Shown here: positions 16,993 to 42,821 of the stretch, one piece after another
Position numbering within the stretch: position 1 is the stretch's first letter
Layout of the letters: each line of letters opens with the position of its first letter
Assembly: GCA_023898605.1 (NCBI GenBank)
Contig: CP060230.1
Coordinates: 67,944-131,943 of the forward strand
Origin: Candidatus Nomurabacteria bacterium
GTDB taxonomy: Bacteria > Patescibacteriota > Minisyncoccia > Phycocordibacterales > UBA9973
Direction: 5' to 3'
Length of the DNA stretch: 64,000 nt
Translations under genes and position numbers: made by a program
Notes under the pieces: model-generated
The model's input: only the letters and a program-made list of their open reading frames with translations
Databases searched by the model: none
Told to the model about the DNA's origin: nothing

Positions 16993-17066
16993 GCTCGGGT
17001 AGCTCAGTTGGTTAGAGCACTCGCCTGAAGAGCGAGGTGTCGGCAGTTCGAGTCTGCCCCCGAGCA
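16993..17066 (+). tRNA. tRNA-Phe (anticodon GAA)
   Basis: Acceptor stem GCTCGGG/CCCGAGC. D-arm GCTC-AGTTGGTTA-GAGC. Anticodon loop CTGAAGA. T-arm GGCAG-TTCGAGT-CTGCC. Flanking ACAAAGT/ACTTTGT extends the acceptor helix to 14 bp. Confidence 0.85.
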
Positions 17067-17092
17067 CTTTGTAAATAAGATTAGATGTGTAT

Positions 17093-17215
17093 GCTCAGTA
17101 CCGACGTCCCGACATGTGGTCGTCGGGAGCACGGAGAGCCGACAGAATCGTCGGCTTTGGTTAGAGCACTCGCCTGAAGAGCGAGGTGTCGGCAGTTCGA
17201 GTCTGCCCCCGAGCA
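17093..17215 (+). pseudogene. Second tRNA-Phe copy lacking a 5' acceptor strand, with a 59-nt double-hairpin insertion in the D-loop after GCTCAG
   Basis: Positions 17158-17215 are identical to the 3' 58 nt of tRNA-Phe (TGGTTAGAGC...CCCGAGCA). GCTCAG lies at 17093-17098. The insert at 17099-17157 is built from CCGACG/CGTCGG and GCCGAC/GTCGGC hairpins. Confidence 0.6.
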
Positions 17216-17345
17216 CAAGATATAACCTAGTCAATTCTAATTTTAAAAAATGGTACACTACACTTACATTTTAAAAAGCTTAAAGGATGGCAAGTATTAT
17301 ATAGGGTCAACCTCCGATTTGGGCTAGCTTCACCCCAAAGATGTT

Positions 17346-17389: not shown

Positions 17390-17914
17390 ATGATCTTTAA
17401 CTTAAAATACTTTATCATGTCGAATAATAATGAAACAGTTGAAAACCCTACCACTTCTGTAGATAAAGTGGTAATTTCAATCTCTAAACGATCGATCTGG
17501 TCATTTATTGGACTGCTTGTGGTAGCTGGCTTCAGCTATCTCCAATGGATAGGCTATTTATTGCCAACCTTTAAGCAGATATTTATTTTGATTGAGGAAG
17601 CAGATGCTTCAATTTTAAGCGTAAGCCAAATAGGGTTGATGTGGGTGCCCGTAATATCGTACGCCCTAGTGGCGTTAAATATCTGTCTTTTTTTTAATAT
17701 ATTTAAGGAATTAAAGAAAGAGAAAGGTCTCATTGCGGGTCTCATTGTGGGTCTCATTTGGGGTCTTTGGGGTCTCATTGCGGGTCTCATTGCGGGTCTC
17801 ACTGCGGGTCTCATTGTGGGTCTCATTTGGGGTCTCACTTGGGGTCTCACTTGGGGTCTCACTGCGGGTCTCATTATGGGTCTCATTATGGGTCTCAAAA
17901 ATGAGTACTCATGA
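17390..17914 (+). CDS. Membrane protein with C-terminal (G-L-I/T-x)n repeat array
   Basis: TM helices, then about 15 tandem 12-bp repeats (GGTCTCATTGCG variants) encoding GLIAGLIVGLIWGL... An alternative start at 17417 (MSNNNET) is possible. Confidence 0.5.
   Translation: MIFNLKYFIMSNNNETVENPTTSVDKVVISISKRSIWSFIGLLVVAGFSYLQWIGYLLPTFKQIFILIEEADASILSVSQIGLMWVPVISYALVALNICLFFNIFKELKKEKGLIAGLIVGLIWGLWGLIAGLIAGLTAGLIVGLIWGLTWGLTWGLTAGLIMGLIMGLKNEYS
17727..17895 (+). repeat. 12-bp tandem repeat array (about 15 copies) inside the CDS
   Basis: Repeat units are GGTCTCATTGCG, GGTCTCATTGTG, GGTCTCATTTGG, GGTCTCACTTGG and similar. The array is in frame because the period is a multiple of 3. Confidence 0.8.
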
Positions 17915-25644: not shown

Positions 25645-25712
25645 TGGTGGGCGATACAGGACTCGAACCTGTGGCCTTTTCAACGTCATCCCGCCTATTT
25701 AGGACGGGATAA
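25645..25712 (-). pseudogene. 3' portion of a split tRNA (acceptor 3' strand ATCGCCC plus encoded CCA; T-arm ACAGG-TTCGAGT-CCTGT)
   Basis: Minus strand reads ...ATCCCGTCCTAAATAGGCGGGATGACGTTGAAAAGGCCACAGGTTCGAGTCCTGTATCGCCCACCA. The matching 5' strand GGGCGATTAGCTCAG lies about 800 bp away at 26461-26475. Confidence 0.5.
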
Positions 25713-25722
25713 AATGAACGCT

Positions 25723-25992: not shown

Positions 25993-26066
25993 GTGAGCGA
26001 TAGAGGATTCGAACCTCTGACCTTTCCCACGTCAAGGGAACGCTCTACCGACTGAGCTAATCGCTC
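25993..26066 (-). tRNA. tRNA-Val (anticodon GAC)
   Basis: Minus strand: acceptor GAGCGAT/ATCGCTC. D-arm GCTC-AGTCGGTA-GAGC. Anticodon stem TTCCC/GGGAA with loop TTGACGT. T-arm AGAGG-TTCGAAT-CCTCT. Discriminator A. No CCA is encoded. Confidence 0.8.
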
Positions 26067-26475
26067 GCTCAAATAAAATTACTACAGTACAAATTGTATC
26101 AATAAAAAATAAAATATGCTCTACTTCACCCCGCCTATTTCAGGCGGGGCAAGCTGAGCTAATCGCTCGCTCAAATAAAATTACTACAGTACAAATTGTA
26201 TCAATAAAAAATAAAATATGCTCTACTTCACCCCGCCTATTTCAGGCGGGGCAAGCTGAGCTAATCGCTCGCTCAAATAAAATTACTACAGTACAAATTG
26301 TATCAATAAAAAATAAAATATGCTCTACTTCACCCCGCCTATTTCAGGCGGGGCAAGCTGAGCTAATCGCTCGCTCAAATAAAATTACTACAGTACAAAT
26401 TGTATCAATAAAAAATAAAATATGCTCTACTTCACCCCGCCTATTTCAGGCGGGGCAAGCTGAGCTAATCGCCCT
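26052..26475. repeat. Four tandem 102-bp repeats plus a partial unit; each unit fuses a tRNA-Val 5' fragment to the GIY-YIG 3'-end hairpin
   Basis: Units start at 26052, 26154, 26256 and 26358 and are near identical. On the minus strand each reads GAGCGATTAGCTCAG, then CTTGCCCCGCCTGAAATAGGCGGGGTGAAGTAGAGC, then about 55 nt of AT-rich sequence. The distal partial unit ends GGGCGATTAGCTCAG, which is the 5' strand of the split tRNA. Confidence 0.85.
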
Positions 26476-36140: not shown

Positions 36141-36710
36141 ATGAAAAATATGCAAACCCTCTCCGACCATCAATTGGTCCAAATGTTCATGAGTGATGGA
36201 AATGAACAAGCTTTTGGTGAAATCTATCTTCGGTACGAAAATCCCGTGAGAGATTTTATTAAAAAATTGTTTTACGGCAGTAAAATGCCAAACTGTCAGG
36301 ACGAAGATGATATCGTTCAAGAAACCTTCCTGAATGTACATAGTGCCTTGAAAAGAGGCCTGTACAAGAATGAAGGGAGAATGAAGGCATGGATCTTTAC
36401 TGTCGCAAAGAATCTTTTTCTGACAATTTTCCAAAAAAACAAAAGGAAGCCAGTGTCGGAACTCAATGATTGGTATTCTAAAATGGTGTTTTTGCCAGAT
36501 ATAGAGAACAGAATGTTCTCCGAAAGGGCTTTCGAATTTCTACTAAAAAGCGGTAGAGATTATGATTGTTTGTTTTTGTATGCGATTGGTTTGAAATACA
36601 ACCAAATTGCAGAAGTCATGAATATCTCCAAAAACACCGTAGGGGCAAAAATATTTAAACAAAGAAAATCTTTGGAAGAGGTTTTTGCCCCAGAGAGATC
36701 AGAACGTTGA
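36141..36710 (+). CDS. ECF-type RNA polymerase sigma factor (sigma-70 family, regions 2 and 4)
   Basis: Region 2 is DIVQETFLNVHSAL. The region-4 HTH is YNQIAEVMNISKNTVGAKIFKQRKSL. A promoter TTGTAA-N16-TATAAT lies upstream. Confidence 0.75.
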   Translation: MKNMQTLSDHQLVQMFMSDGNEQAFGEIYLRYENPVRDFIKKLFYGSKMPNCQDEDDIVQETFLNVHSALKRGLYKNEGRMKAWIFTVAKNLFLTIFQKNKRKPVSELNDWYSKMVFLPDIENRMFSERAFEFLLKSGRDYDCLFLYAIGLKYNQIAEVMNISKNTVGAKIFKQRKSLEEVFAPERSER

Positions 36711-41738: not shown

Positions 41739-42191
41739 ATGAGTTTGCAAACAGACATAAAAGAAAAAATAAAAGAAGCAATGTTGGCAAAGGACCAAGT
41801 AAGGCTTGGTGTTATGAGGATGCTAACTAGTGCGTTTACAAATGAGCTTGTAGCCAAGGGTAAAAAGCCGACAGAAGAACTTTCTGACGACGAGGCATTG
41901 GCCGTGATTGCAAGGCTTGCAAAACAGAGAAAAGACTCAATAAGTCAGTTCGAAGCCGGTGGAAGAATGGATCTTGTAGAAGAAGAGAAGGGTCAGCTAA
42001 CTATTCTAGAAGAATTTTTACCAGAAATGATGGGAGAAGATGAAGTTAGAAGTTTTGTTTCTACAAAGAAAACAGAGCTCGGAGTAGATGATCCAAAAGA
42101 CAAAGGAAAGCTTATGTCAGAAGTTATGAAAGAATTAAAAGGTCGAGCCGATGGAGGCATTGTAAAAAGTGTAGTAGATAGTTTGTTTTAA
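41739..42191 (+). CDS. GatB/YqeY domain protein
   Basis: Sequence ...QVRLGVMRMLTSAFTNE...DEALAVIARLAKQRKDSISQFEAGGR is typical of the GatB_Yqey family. Confidence 0.75.
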   Translation: MSLQTDIKEKIKEAMLAKDQVRLGVMRMLTSAFTNELVAKGKKPTEELSDDEALAVIARLAKQRKDSISQFEAGGRMDLVEEEKGQLTILEEFLPEMMGEDEVRSFVSTKKTELGVDDPKDKGKLMSEVMKELKGRADGGIVKSVVDSLF

Positions 42192-42208
42192 ATTTTTTAA
42201 TTATGAAT

Positions 42209-42482
42209 CCCGTTAGAGATTAATCATGTTTTATGTTTACGTATTACAGAGTAAAAAAGACGGGAAAATGTATACAGGAAGTACCAAAGATCTTCGGAAG
42301 CGCTTTTTGCAACACGAAAAAGGATTATCAACTTGGACAAAAGGAAGAGGTCCATTTATAATGGTTTATTATGAAGCATGTCTCAATGAGCAAGATGCTC
42401 GGTCGCGTGAGACATATTTAAAATCAGGTATGGGAAAGCGTTATCTAAAAAATAGACTTAAGCGCTTCCTATCTCTAACGGG
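42209..42482 (+). mobile_element. 274-bp miniature TIR element carrying a GIY-YIG ORF; 12-14-bp perfect terminal inverted repeats; putative 5-bp target duplication ATGAA
   Basis: Left end is (AT)CCCGTTAGAGAT at 42207-42220. Right end is ATCTCTAACGGG(AT) at 42471-42484. Flanks read ..ATGAAT|..|ATGAAA.. The downstream gene's ATG lies in the right-hand ATGAA copy. Confidence 0.6.
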
Positions 42483-42486
42483 ATGA
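42226..42486 (+). CDS. GIY-YIG nuclease family small protein
   Basis: N-terminus FYVYVLQSKKDGKMYTGSTKDLRKRFLQHEKG carries GIY-YIG. The stop codon TGA is supplied by the flanking ATGAA. Confidence 0.8.
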   Translation: MFYVYVLQSKKDGKMYTGSTKDLRKRFLQHEKGLSTWTKGRGPFIMVYYEACLNEQDARSRETYLKSGMGKRYLKNRLKRFLSLTG

Positions 42487-42821
42487 AAATTATAGTTCAT
42501 TGGCTTATCCTAACTCTAGCGGTATTTGCTGTACCATATTTTGTTGGAGGTATATCAGTAGATAGTGTAGTTGTGGCGATTATTGTCGGTGCGTGTCTTG
42601 CGTTTATAAATATGGTTGTAAAACCTGTTATATCTATCCTAACTCTACCCATAAACATAATTACTCTAGGACTTTTCTCTTTAGTTATAAATGCGGGGCT
42701 TTTCTACCTAGTTTCGACAGTCGTCGAAGGTTTTAGTGTAGATGGGTTCATGCCGGCACTTTGGGGATCTCTGGTTGTTTCAATAATAAACTGGTTTTCT
42801 GGTAAAGTCGTAAGAGATTAA
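42483..42821 (+). CDS. Phage-holin-family / DUF360-like small membrane protein
   Basis: Four TM helices. Motifs VVKPVISILTLP and GLFSLVINAGLFYL resemble the holin-4 superfamily. Confidence 0.45.
   Translation: MKIIVHWLILTLAVFAVPYFVGGISVDSVVVAIIVGACLAFINMVVKPVISILTLPINIITLGLFSLVINAGLFYLVSTVVEGFSVDGFMPALWGSLVVSIINWFSGKVVRD

Follow-up and report, generated by a model that had tools for sequence, protein, structure and literature searches.

Single-domain GIY-YIG nucleases that sit beside hairpin repeats have been described as the Ssn family (CDD cd10448), which includes SsnA of Neisseria meningitidis and its NTS/SRM repeats (Chenal et al. 2025, PMC11893778). Ssn enzymes bind the hairpin in single-stranded DNA (ssDNA) only and cut a few nucleotides upstream of it, within the variable flank; they cut one side of the hairpin only, and they also act on a stem assembled from two half-oligonucleotides (PMC11893778). 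The role shown for them is the restriction of transformation in Neisseria, and the authors noted that the module looks like an insertion sequence (IS), for which mobility was only conjectured (PMC11893778).

Several other systems share features with the locus described here. RAYT/REPtron modules and the IS200/IS605 'peel and paste' elements likewise carry a small gene between inverted copies of a hairpin-forming repeat and give rise to short, non-autonomous palindromic derivatives; recognition of folded ssDNA and an expected link to the lagging-strand template would be further points in common. However, they rely on HUH/Y1 enzymes with covalent intermediates and make no target duplication, whereas the element here has no HUH protein and combines a GIY-YIG hydrolase with a 4-bp duplication. 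Classical ISs and MITEs also have terminal inverted repeats (TIRs), a short target-site duplication (TSD), a preferred target, ORF-less miniatures and clustered or tandem insertions. Unlike them, the present element has no DDE, serine or tyrosine transposase, its orientation is fixed relative to a non-palindromic target, and its two ends and an internal helix make up one covarying stem. The smallest known autonomous ISs are approximately 600-700 bp in length, and the element here is less than half that size. The T4 Seg proteins and I-TevI share the GIY-YIG domain and are likewise inserted between genes, with start and stop codons that overlap, but they lack TIRs, TSDs and miniatures, have separate DNA-binding domains and re-use one homologous site. 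Finally, SLX1, which cuts branched and stem-loop DNA, and the UPF0213 (YhbQ-type) proteins are structure-specific GIY-YIG nucleases and the closest solved relatives; their role is in cellular repair, and neither mobility nor bracketing by cognate repeats is known for them.

The locus lies within a 64-kb stretch of DNA, the whole of which was analysed and is referred to as the window. Its features are listed in Table 1. A sequence-only reading of the window had proposed a perfect inverted repeat around an 86-aa GIY-YIG ORF that takes its stop codon from a duplicated target, and both proposals are borne out, the two arms being 14 nt long and 250 nt apart. The same reading gave a 274-bp element with a 5-bp duplication. 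ATGAA does stand on both sides (42203-42207 and 42483-42487), but the duplication proper is the 4 bp TGAA, and the element has to be corrected to 276 bp (42208-42483). Boundaries were set by comparing 81 copies, in which the termini are conserved and the flanks vary, and from empty orthologous sites. The base that precedes the right TGAA belongs to the element, because in relatives with C...G ends (L041 and L070) the right junction reads G+TGAA and the left A+TGAA.

Table 1. Positions of the element, its structural features and the flanking host genes within the window.
Feature	Position	Strand	Basis or remark
Upstream host gene, YqeY/GatB-like, 150 aa	41739..42191	+	Pfam YqeY, 8e-41
Former host start codon, ATG	42203-42205	+	now opens the leader mini-ORF; sequence
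Leader mini-ORF ATGAATCCCGTTAGAGATTAA, MNPVRD and stop	42203..42223	+	ends 2 nt 5' of the nuclease ATG
Left copy of the 4-bp target-site duplication, TGAA	42204..42207	+	flank comparison, empty sites
Left terminal inverted repeat, 5' arm of helix P1, ATCCCGTTAGAGAT	42207..42220	+	
Element proper, 276 bp, ends 5'-TCCCG...CGGGA-3'	42208..42483	+	
GIY-YIG nuclease ORF, 86 aa	42226..42486	+	bare catalytic domain and C-terminal helix
Helix P2, 5' arm GGAAGCGCTT	42296..42305	+	codons R24-F27; RNAalifold and covariation
Helix P2, 3' arm AAGCGCTTCC	42460..42469	+	codons K79-L82; separated from the right TIR by 1 nt
Right terminal inverted repeat, 3' arm of helix P1, ATCTCTAACGGGAT	42471..42484	+	
Downstream host gene, PF04020, 112 aa	42483..42821	+	Pfam 1e-30, profile positions 1-105
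Right copy of the target-site duplication, TGAA	42484..42487	+	its TGA is the nuclease stop codon

It can be seen that gene and element interlock. The right terminal repeat encodes the conserved C-terminus of the nuclease, SLTG, and the nuclease stop codon (TGA, 42484-42486) overlaps the ATG of the PF04020 'holin-like' gene (42483-42485), which is made up of the last A of the element and the duplicated TG. No terminator was found between the YqeY gene and the element, and YqeY, the element and the downstream gene are therefore probably co-transcribed. Matches to the 14-nt arm sequence with up to two mismatches were found 4 times in the 64-kb window against 0.36 expected. The only copy of the element there is the one described, represented by its own two arms; near-matches to the arms at 36241 and 52275 both fall inside coding sequence and were put down to chance. 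No known RNA family was detected by Rfam at either the gathering or a permissive threshold. The two other GIY-YIG ORFs of the window have local hairpins instead, and no gene-spanning repeats were found around them.

The 86-aa protein scores 58.9 bits against PF01541 (GIY-YIG; cut-off 22.6, E = 6e-16). Residues Y5, Y16, R26, H30 and E62 are invariant in 27 sequences and third codon positions are the most variable in the gene, which together indicate that the protein is under purifying selection. An AlphaFold2 model (pLDDT 92; E2-9, E15-20, H23-31, E44-52, H55-66, H68-85) has the three-stranded sheet flanked by helices of the GIY-YIG fold, and Foldseek matched it to UPF0213, SLX1 and I-TevI, with the closest solved structures or sequences being 1zg2 at 4e-15 and SLX1 at 3e-5, TM 0.65. 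The protein is a single domain with no DNA-binding domain beyond the 86-aa catalytic core. As the sole ORF of the element encodes this nuclease, none of the recognised transposase classes (DDE, DEDD, HUH, Ser, Tyr, Cas1) is represented.

The nuclease appears to belong to a UPF0213/SLX1-like branch and to resemble the Ssn single-strand nucleases most. These, which have the same catalytic spacing, are probably its closest published relatives; the nearest solved relatives are in UPF0213. Like Ssn proteins, which are single-domain GIY-YIG enzymes of around 90 aa, it is encoded by a gene bracketed by its own cognate inverted repeats (here at about 70 loci), and its Y5, Y16 and E62 correspond to the SsnA residues Y6, Y17 and E64 that have been mutated. 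In contrast to Ssn, where there is a local hairpin on each side, here the two halves of one stem flank the gene, and a second helix lies partly inside the ORF. The SRM consensus HGTCWY...RNCYNB has no match in the window on either strand. The 4-bp duplication, docking on start codons, empty sites and miniatures described below have not been reported for Ssn.

The sequence-only reading had suggested a search for further copies. Many were found; they have CCCGTTAGAGA termini and short flanking repeats that match, and they stand 5' of unrelated genes. Homologues of the nuclease (70-84% amino acid identity) occur between these terminal repeats at approximately 70 loci in many Patescibacteria and in other phyla, and at these loci no gene other than the GIY-YIG gene lies between the ends. 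The lineages include Nomura-, Terry-, Wolfe-, Giovannoni-, Davies- and Berkelbacteria and Saccharibacteria, and further afield Omnitrophota, Planctomycetes and Desulfobacterota. Flanks are identical over at least 4 bp in 46 of the 81 copies, against 16.6 +/- 2.5 by permutation (2000 permutations, with a maximum of 25 matching copies). At loci with a target other than TGAA they match over at least 3 bp in 22/39 cases, where 4.2 would be expected, and the duplications here include TGGA, TGAG, TGCA, TTTA, TTGA, CTAA and TTATGA. The flanking 4-bp repeats thus vary among loci and agree within a locus, with a consensus of T-G/T-A-A that is mostly TGAA. Among copies, conservation is higher in the right-hand duplicate than in the left-hand one; the right-hand TGAA could be a part that moves along with the element, as happens in IS200/IS605, and not a true duplication.

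In relatives the PF04020 gene lies directly 3' of the YqeY gene, and about 15 of these orthologous loci are empty. There the PF04020 orthologues start ATGAAAAT... directly after YqeY (one empty locus, L094, reads ...TAAatATGAAAATTATCGTTCAT), which is the product that had been predicted for excision, the YqeY stop followed by ATGAAAAT... Two further loci (L099 and L106) carry a 131-nt ORF-less copy on the same start codon, and another, L100, retains a right-end remnant at the same YqeY/PF04020 site. At least 11 MITE-like copies have the same termini and duplication, as the proposed MITE-like architecture would lead one to expect; one of them, in L059, is a clear internal deletion of a full element, and the ORF-less miniatures keep P1 and a P2-like hairpin.

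Nothing pointed to recent bursts: the closest pair of elements is 92% identical, and the one comparable pair from the same genome (L047/L058) 90%. Nor was a polymorphic site found within a species: all of the 10-plus strain-level contigs, defined as those encoding an identical YqeY or PF04020 protein, are occupied, and empty YqeY/PF04020 sites are confined to more distant relatives. No circle junction or excision intermediate was seen. The viral contigs searched contained no copy of the element, and so give no evidence for carriage by phage, and a plasmid collection returned weak, distant GIY-YIG matches only. Each check that the sequence-only reading had named as a possible refutation supported a mobile element. 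We conclude from comparison of the loci that the element is mobile, as shown by its presence at many sites, its matching duplications, the empty sites and the ORF-less miniatures.

Alignment of 70 elements shows that P1, formed by the terminal repeats (14 bp), and the internal P2 (10 bp) make up a conserved, covarying stem in which the helices stack coaxially across a one-base bulge. RNAalifold finds both helices unprompted. In all, 98.4% of the alignment cells are paired and 13 pairs have changes on both sides; 0/500 shuffles reach the observed values, and slid controls pair at 29-48%. Pair 115/280, at two synonymous third positions, is GC in 34 elements and AU in 30, pair 119/276 couples F27L with K79R, and in L010 K79 is replaced by S with pairing kept. 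An 83-aa subfamily retains the last 30 nt despite a frameshift. Conservation at third codon positions is 0.83 inside the arms, compared with 0.60 elsewhere, and when the window copy is folded alone as ssDNA both P1 and P2 are present (z = -3.6). Strong covariation of the terminal repeats and the internal helix, even at synonymous sites, is a new observation.

In 49/81 copies an ORF of 60 aa or more has its start codon at the right junction. In these copies the last base of the element and the duplicated TG restore this codon of the host gene in overlap with the stop of the nuclease (ATGA), so that coupling can still give translation of the host gene. These ORFs match pyrG, secY, atpA, ruvC and others from profile position 1-3, and the gene orders include rplO-element-secY (L032) and atpH-element-atpA (L016). 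The upstream duplicate retains the ATG of the host and presumably also its ribosome-binding site. This upstream ATG opens a 6-codon leader in the window copy and the nuclease itself in other copies, and homologues have been annotated with MNPVRD... N-terminal extensions. A rule by which the left ATG is fused in frame to the nuclease was rejected, since the junction ATG is in frame in 12/37 relatives, no more than chance; a stop lies 4-11 nt before the nuclease ATG in 9/37. In three copies (L051, L062 and L063) there is no canonical ATG at the usual nuclease start, so that the junction ATG is the likely start. Only 7/43 copies have a Shine-Dalgarno-like motif 5' of the left ATG.

Enzymatic specificity for start codons was considered and is not needed to account for this pattern. 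Of 186 ATGAA sites in the window, 14 are ORF starts and 159 are inside ORFs, which means that about half of the non-disruptive sites are start codons, near the observed 60%. Selection alone can explain the bias, because insertions inside genes are lost.

Taken together, the reading that we favour, with a probability of roughly 60%, is that the window copy belongs to a family of miniature, probably autonomous DNA transposons with terminal repeats of 13-14 bp and a GIY-YIG nuclease as their only gene. We infer that the nuclease is the transposase and acts on folded ssDNA. The stem would form when the DNA is single-stranded, for example in the lagging-strand template (here the sense strand), and folding would place the two TGAA copies next to each other at its foot. 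By analogy with Ssn enzymes at their hairpins, the 86-aa protein would recognise the stem and nick a few nucleotides outside it, and this nick would start excision or copying. Host ligase or repair functions may then carry out the final joining, at another T(G/T)AA site. To our knowledge, GIY-YIG enzymes are hydrolytic nucleases with no strand-transfer chemistry, which counts against this reading at the joining step.

An alternative that we regard as unlikely is that the element is mobile but that the stem works in mRNA, with mobilisation independent of it. The stem would then either sequester the leader and host start codon, making host translation depend on ribosomes that finish the nuclease ORF, or provide an RNase III site. 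The bases it covers do include those just 5' of the nuclease start, the stop codon of the nuclease and the A and T of the host ATG. The ATGA overlap and the end of the leader 2 nt ahead of the nuclease would suit translational coupling, and the genes are probably co-transcribed, with no terminator between YqeY and the element. On the sense strand P2 tolerates G-U over A-C (16 against 6), but in P1 the bias is the opposite (1 against 7), so that the two helices disagree as to the folding strand and as to RNA or DNA. Moreover, Ssn relatives bind no RNA (PMC11893778), the leader frame is not systematically coupled to the nuclease, as the counts in 37 relatives given above show, and the ORF-less miniatures keep P1 and the P2-like hairpin with no nuclease translation left to regulate.

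Equally improbable, in our estimation, is that a transposase encoded elsewhere moves the element and that the GIY-YIG gene is cargo with, for example, an addiction, defence or repair function. The ORF-less copies show that the ends suffice in cis, TIRs with a 4-bp TSD are the classic pattern of DDE transposases, and we know of no IS family that uses a GIY-YIG enzyme, a literature search having found none. However, the GIY-YIG gene is the sole gene of the element at some 70 loci in many phyla, and one arm of P2 lies in its coding sequence and co-evolves with it. The related Ssn nucleases are specific for the repeats on either side of the genes that encode them, and no transposase gene was noted beside elements in the few flanks examined.

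Far less probable again is a free-standing homing endonuclease gene, such as T4 seg/mob, copied in by homologous repair of a cut empty allele. The small GIY-YIG ORF recalls such genes in being squeezed between conserved genes, with start and stop codons that overlap, and in its weak matches to the I-TevI catalytic domain. Homing, though, produces neither TIRs nor target duplications and re-uses one homologous site, whereas here the flanks are unrelated genes with matching 4-bp duplications, and miniature derivatives exist; in addition the protein has no DNA-binding domain outside its core and is closer to UPF0213 and SLX1 than to I-TevI. The unrelated host genes, TIRs and matching duplications largely refute this explanation.

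That the locus is an ordinary, immobile host gene inside a resident regulatory hairpin or an inverted repeat due to chance would fit the single copy in the window and the occupancy of all strain-level contigs, but is refuted by compensatory changes across 70 loci, empty orthologous sites and duplications that differ among loci. The hairpin alternative raised in the sequence-only reading was partly right, as the repeats do form one of the two helices of a conserved structure, although this structure moves with the element. An integron attC cassette was also rejected. The arms hold GTTAGAG and CTCTAAC, like core and inverse-core sites, but the boundaries lie 5 nt outside the G|TT of GTTRRRY and there is neither an array nor an integrase, the copies being solitary in housekeeping operons.

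The transposon family proposed here is widespread and apparently undescribed, a literature search having found no description of such an element. All bacterial transposons known to us rely on DDE/DEDD, HUH, serine, tyrosine or Cas1 enzymes. If the nuclease moves the element, this would be a new enzymatic route to transposition and a new lower size limit for autonomous mobile DNA. That it represents a new class of prokaryotic transposon in full, with an 86-aa GIY-YIG transposase, the smallest autonomous mobile element, a folded-ssDNA intermediate whose ends P1 and P2 bring side by side, and docking on start codons, we put at somewhat below even odds. Such a class would survive by docking on start codons and borrowing host translation signals. 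The whole Ssn/hairpin-repeat family would gain a selfish-element origin, and non-intron GIY-YIG insertions, which have been reported scattered among CPR rRNA genes, would be explained. The duplications, empty sites and miniatures supply comparative evidence of mobility, which the 2025 Ssn paper could only conjecture. Site- and structure-specific ssDNA nucleases with defined stems are of practical interest too, and the overlap of a covarying helix with coding sequence illustrates cleanly how the structure of a nucleic acid can constrain the evolution of a protein. For the hosts, the family shows how a parasite can sit in essential operons (rplO-secY, atpH-atpA, yebC-ruvC) of extremely streamlined genomes without killing them, by way of a rebuilt start codon and coupled translation.

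The GIY-YIG ORF found between inverted repeats in this window (36.7% G+C) belongs to a mobile element with terminal inverted repeats (TIRs) and a target-site duplication (TSD), of which the nuclease is the sole gene. The table shows that the 14-nt repeats noticed around the 86-aa ORF are borne out. The 14-mer has two further near-matches in the window, both within genes and set aside as chance. The nuclease is identical to the NCBI entry 'GIY-YIG nuclease family protein [Candidatus Nomurabacteria bacterium]'.

Positions (nt of the window) of the element, its neighbours and other features
Feature	Position	Strand	Remarks
YqeY gene	41739-42191		upstream gene
Left terminal repeat	42207-42220		ATCCCGTTAGAGAT; exact reverse complement at 42471-42484
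Helix P1	terminal repeats		14 bp
GIY-YIG ORF of element	42226-42486		86 codons; Pfam GIY-YIG E = 6e-16
Helix P2	42296-42305 with 42460-42469		10 bp; one bulged base on 3' strand between P2 and P1
Promoter-like site	42334-42362	+	TGGACA-17-TATAAT (11/12)
PF04020 membrane protein gene	ATG at 42483		downstream gene; overlaps nuclease stop as ATGA
GIY-YIG ORF, 86 aa	16703-16963	+
tRNA-Phe	16993-17067		partial duplicate 17153-17207
GIY-YIG N-terminal fragment	17253-17321	+
Repetitive ORF	17390-17914	+
Hairpin	~25690-25715	-	ATCCCGtCCtaaataGGcGGGATGAc; downstream of 89-aa ORF
GIY-YIG ORF, 89 aa	25723-25992	-
tRNA-Val	25993-26066		abuts GIY-YIG ORF, zero spacer
Tandem array	26052-26472		4.1 copies of 102-nt unit, 100% identity
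Hairpin repeats of side GIY-YIG ORFs	15924, 16644, 17108, 25731, 26129, 26231, 26333, 26435

More than 2800 relatives of the nuclease are detectable; the best 120 of them share 72-84% identity, span many candidate phyla and in most cases have a length of exactly 86 aa. All finish ...RFLSLTG, and for several the annotated protein includes MNPVRD, an N-terminal extension that is the translation of ATGAATCCCGTTAGAGAT. The search for further copies with the same termini proposed in the sequence-only reading covered 80 loci of species-representative genomes, where nearly every copy has the upstream end (A)TCCCGTTAGAGA(T/C) 9-12 nt before the ATG and the downstream end TCTCTAACGGGA at the nuclease stop. 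There was no sign of recent bursts among these copies, the best element pair being 92% identical and the only comparable pair from one genome (L047/L058) 90%.

With the element ends set as 5'-[T/C]CCCG...CGGG[A/G]-3', 46 of 81 non-redundant copies carry the same four bases just outside both ends, compared with 16.6 +/- 2.5 (maximum 25 in 2000 trials) when flanks were re-paired at random. Loci with targets other than TGAA match over at least 3 bp in 22 of 39 cases, against 4.2 expected. Most duplications are TGAA; TGAG, TGGA, TGCA, TTTA, TTGA, CTAA and TTATGA also occur, and the logo of the target, A-T-(G/T)-A-A, carries none outside these positions. An ATGAA duplication had been proposed for the window copy, and ATGAA is indeed present at both flanks, but two copies with C...G ends (L041 and L070) have A+TGAA at the left flank and G+TGAA at the right, indicating that the duplication is 4 bp and that the terminal T/A or C/G is part of the element. 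This terminal pair covaries (UA 50, CG 14).

No empty site was found at strain level, where every contig has the element. The gene order YqeY, PF04020, MYG1 is kept in approximately 20 metagenomic relatives (PF04020 protein 51-65% identical), and in about 15 of these ATGAAAAT... comes 2-43 nt after the YqeY stop; the empty site of one orthologous locus (L094) reads ttcTAAatATGAAAATTATCGTTCAT. This is the window sequence minus the element and one TGAA, exactly the excision product that had been predicted. The shared ends, matching 4-bp flanks and empty orthologous sites support the miniature TIR/TSD reading, and the target site is established.

Insertion rebuilds the host start codon. In 49 of 81 copies, an ORF no shorter than 60 aa opens with the codon made up of the final base of the element and the TG of the duplication; 19 others have a start codon no more than 40 nt away. 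Ten such ORFs align from profile position 1-3 (CTP synthase, SecY, ATP synthase alpha/beta subunit, RuvC, an RNase J-like beta-CASP protein, an ABC-2 permease, methyl- and cytidylyl-transferases, a VWA protein and a T4SS coupling protein); the element stands between rplO and secY in the order rpsE-rplO-secY at L032, and between atpH and atpA at L016. The old host ATG is retained in the upstream duplicate. In the window it opens MNPVRD*, terminating 2 nt short of the nuclease ATG; 12 of 37 relatives have this old ATG in the nuclease's frame. Three loci (L051, L062, L063) have no aligned canonical ATG at the usual nuclease start, so that translation there probably starts from the junction ATG. 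The window holds 186 ATGAA sites, 159 within long ORFs, 14 at ORF starts and 13 intergenic; the start-codon bias need not have an enzymatic cause. The promoter-like site within the nuclease ORF points at the host gene, and its -10 hexamer is not conserved among other elements.

An alignment of 70 full-length elements was analysed with RNAalifold, which gave P1 and P2 unprompted. Standard pairs fill 98.4% of cells, compared with 29-48% in controls that shift the 3' partner by 1-3 columns; 13 pairs and 106 cells are changed on both sides, against 5.7 and 28.4 in shuffles, none of 500 of which attained the observed values. Pair 115/280 (GC 34, AU 30) joins synonymous third positions (K25 AAG/AAA, R80 CGC/CGT), pair 118/277 is CG 56 or UA 10, and pair 119/276 (UA 49, CG 19) links F27L to K79R; in the homologous locus L010, K79 becomes S (AGT), matching CGA-CTT. 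In an 83-aa subfamily a 1-nt deletion shifts the C-terminal frame, yet the last 30 nt are kept. Third-codon-position conservation is 0.83 within the arms and 0.60 elsewhere, but third positions are the most variable overall (0.63 versus 0.83 and 0.88), indicating that the protein is also under selection. The P1+P2 stem is conserved, and folding the window copy by itself as ssDNA recovers P1 as well as P2 (z = -3.6).

At least 11 copies of approximately 80-140 bp lack the ORF and have termini, duplication and start-codon position in common with full elements. One (L059:3032-3172) retains ~75 nt from the start of the nuclease ORF and is thus an internal deletion of a full element; in place of its P2 stands a CCCCGAC...GTCGGGG hairpin that also accompanies the window's other GIY-YIG ORFs. 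A G+C-rich hairpin or stem extension adjoins the right terminal repeat in all miniature copies, on the host-gene side in all nine with readable asymmetry. Two orthologous loci (L099 and L106) carry a 131-nt ORF-less copy on the identical PF04020 start codon, with ATGAA at each side. L106 also has a full 83-aa-type element (45-278, - strand) ~500 nt away on the opposite strand, a possible source of nuclease in trans. Elements stand back to back at L059, L035, L038 and L078. Solo right-end remnants precede host start codons at L100, where only the remnant is found and ...cctatctctaacaggATGAAA (~1470-1500) precedes the PF04020 gene, and at L016 (2950-2990), where it closes the atpH ORF as ...CCTCTAACGGGATGA (IPLTG*) and directly abuts a full element.

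Residues Y5, Y16, G18, R26, H30 and E62 of the nuclease are invariant, and an AlphaFold2 model (pLDDT 92) shows a bare GIY-YIG core with a long basic C-terminal helix. Among solved structures, a profile search places the UPF0213 proteins 1zg2 (4e-15) and 1ywl (1e-11) closest, then the structure-specific nuclease SLX1 (3e-5; TM 0.65, rmsd 1.6 A), with I-TevI further away. Of published systems, the Ssn family comes nearest: ~94-aa single-domain GIY-YIG proteins (cd10448) that need Y6, Y17 and E64 for activity and are encoded between cognate hairpin repeats (PMC11893778). These enzymes bind their hairpin when it is in ssDNA but not in dsDNA or RNA; they cleave within the variable flank, a few nt upstream, and are also active on a stem built from two half-oligos (PMC11893778). 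Its authors noted that NTS-ssnA-NTS, the gene between its hairpin repeats, resembles an insertion sequence and likened it to IS200/IS605 and REP/RAYT, mobility not being demonstrated (PMC11893778). Unlike Ssn, the present family has its stem split around the gene, an internal helix, a 4-bp duplication, docking on start codons and miniature derivatives, and it lacks the published SRM consensus, of which the window contains no match. We found no description of a TIR/TSD GIY-YIG element in the literature searched.

The other GIY-YIG ORFs of the window (26-32% identical to the element's nuclease) and the fragment adjoin tRNA genes; no gene-spanning inverted repeat surrounds them. Short G+C-rich hairpin repeats accompany them (CCCCGACgctatgGTCGGGG, CCCGACatgtggtcGTCGGG, CCCCGCCTatttcAGGCGGGG) in a layout like that of Ssn and its NTS. 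The perfect tandem array begins within the 5' end of tRNA-Val, each unit comprising a tRNA 5' fragment and a CCCCGCCT...AGGCGGGG hairpin. The hairpin downstream of the 89-aa ORF lies within an apparent interrupted tRNA-like sequence, and its outer bases, ATCCCG...CGGGATGA, are those of the element's terminal repeats. The C-terminal half of the repetitive ORF is Gly/Leu/Ile/Trp-rich (GLIAGLIVGLIWGL...), and its repeat leaves long ORFs open in several frames.

We propose that the stem would form in single-stranded DNA, drawing both TGAA copies together, that the nuclease, by analogy with Ssn, would recognise it and nick just outside, and that host functions would do the joining, the chemistry of which is the weakest point of the proposal. 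Positive GC skew at the locus makes the sense strand the lagging-strand template, but the element and its host gene point the same way, so the skew does not count as independent evidence. As to which strand or molecule folds, wobble counts point in opposite directions in the two helices (16 G-U versus 6 A-C in P2, 1 versus 7 in P1). A rival is that the stem acts in mRNA. Another is that an unlinked transposase mobilises the element, whose nuclease would be cargo. A third rival, homing, conflicts with the duplications and with the unrelated flanks. GIY-YIG proteins are among the genes donated to other bacteria in a Patescibacteria gene-exchange study (PMC12455944). The GIY-YIG protein of the present element is its likely, still putative, transposase.
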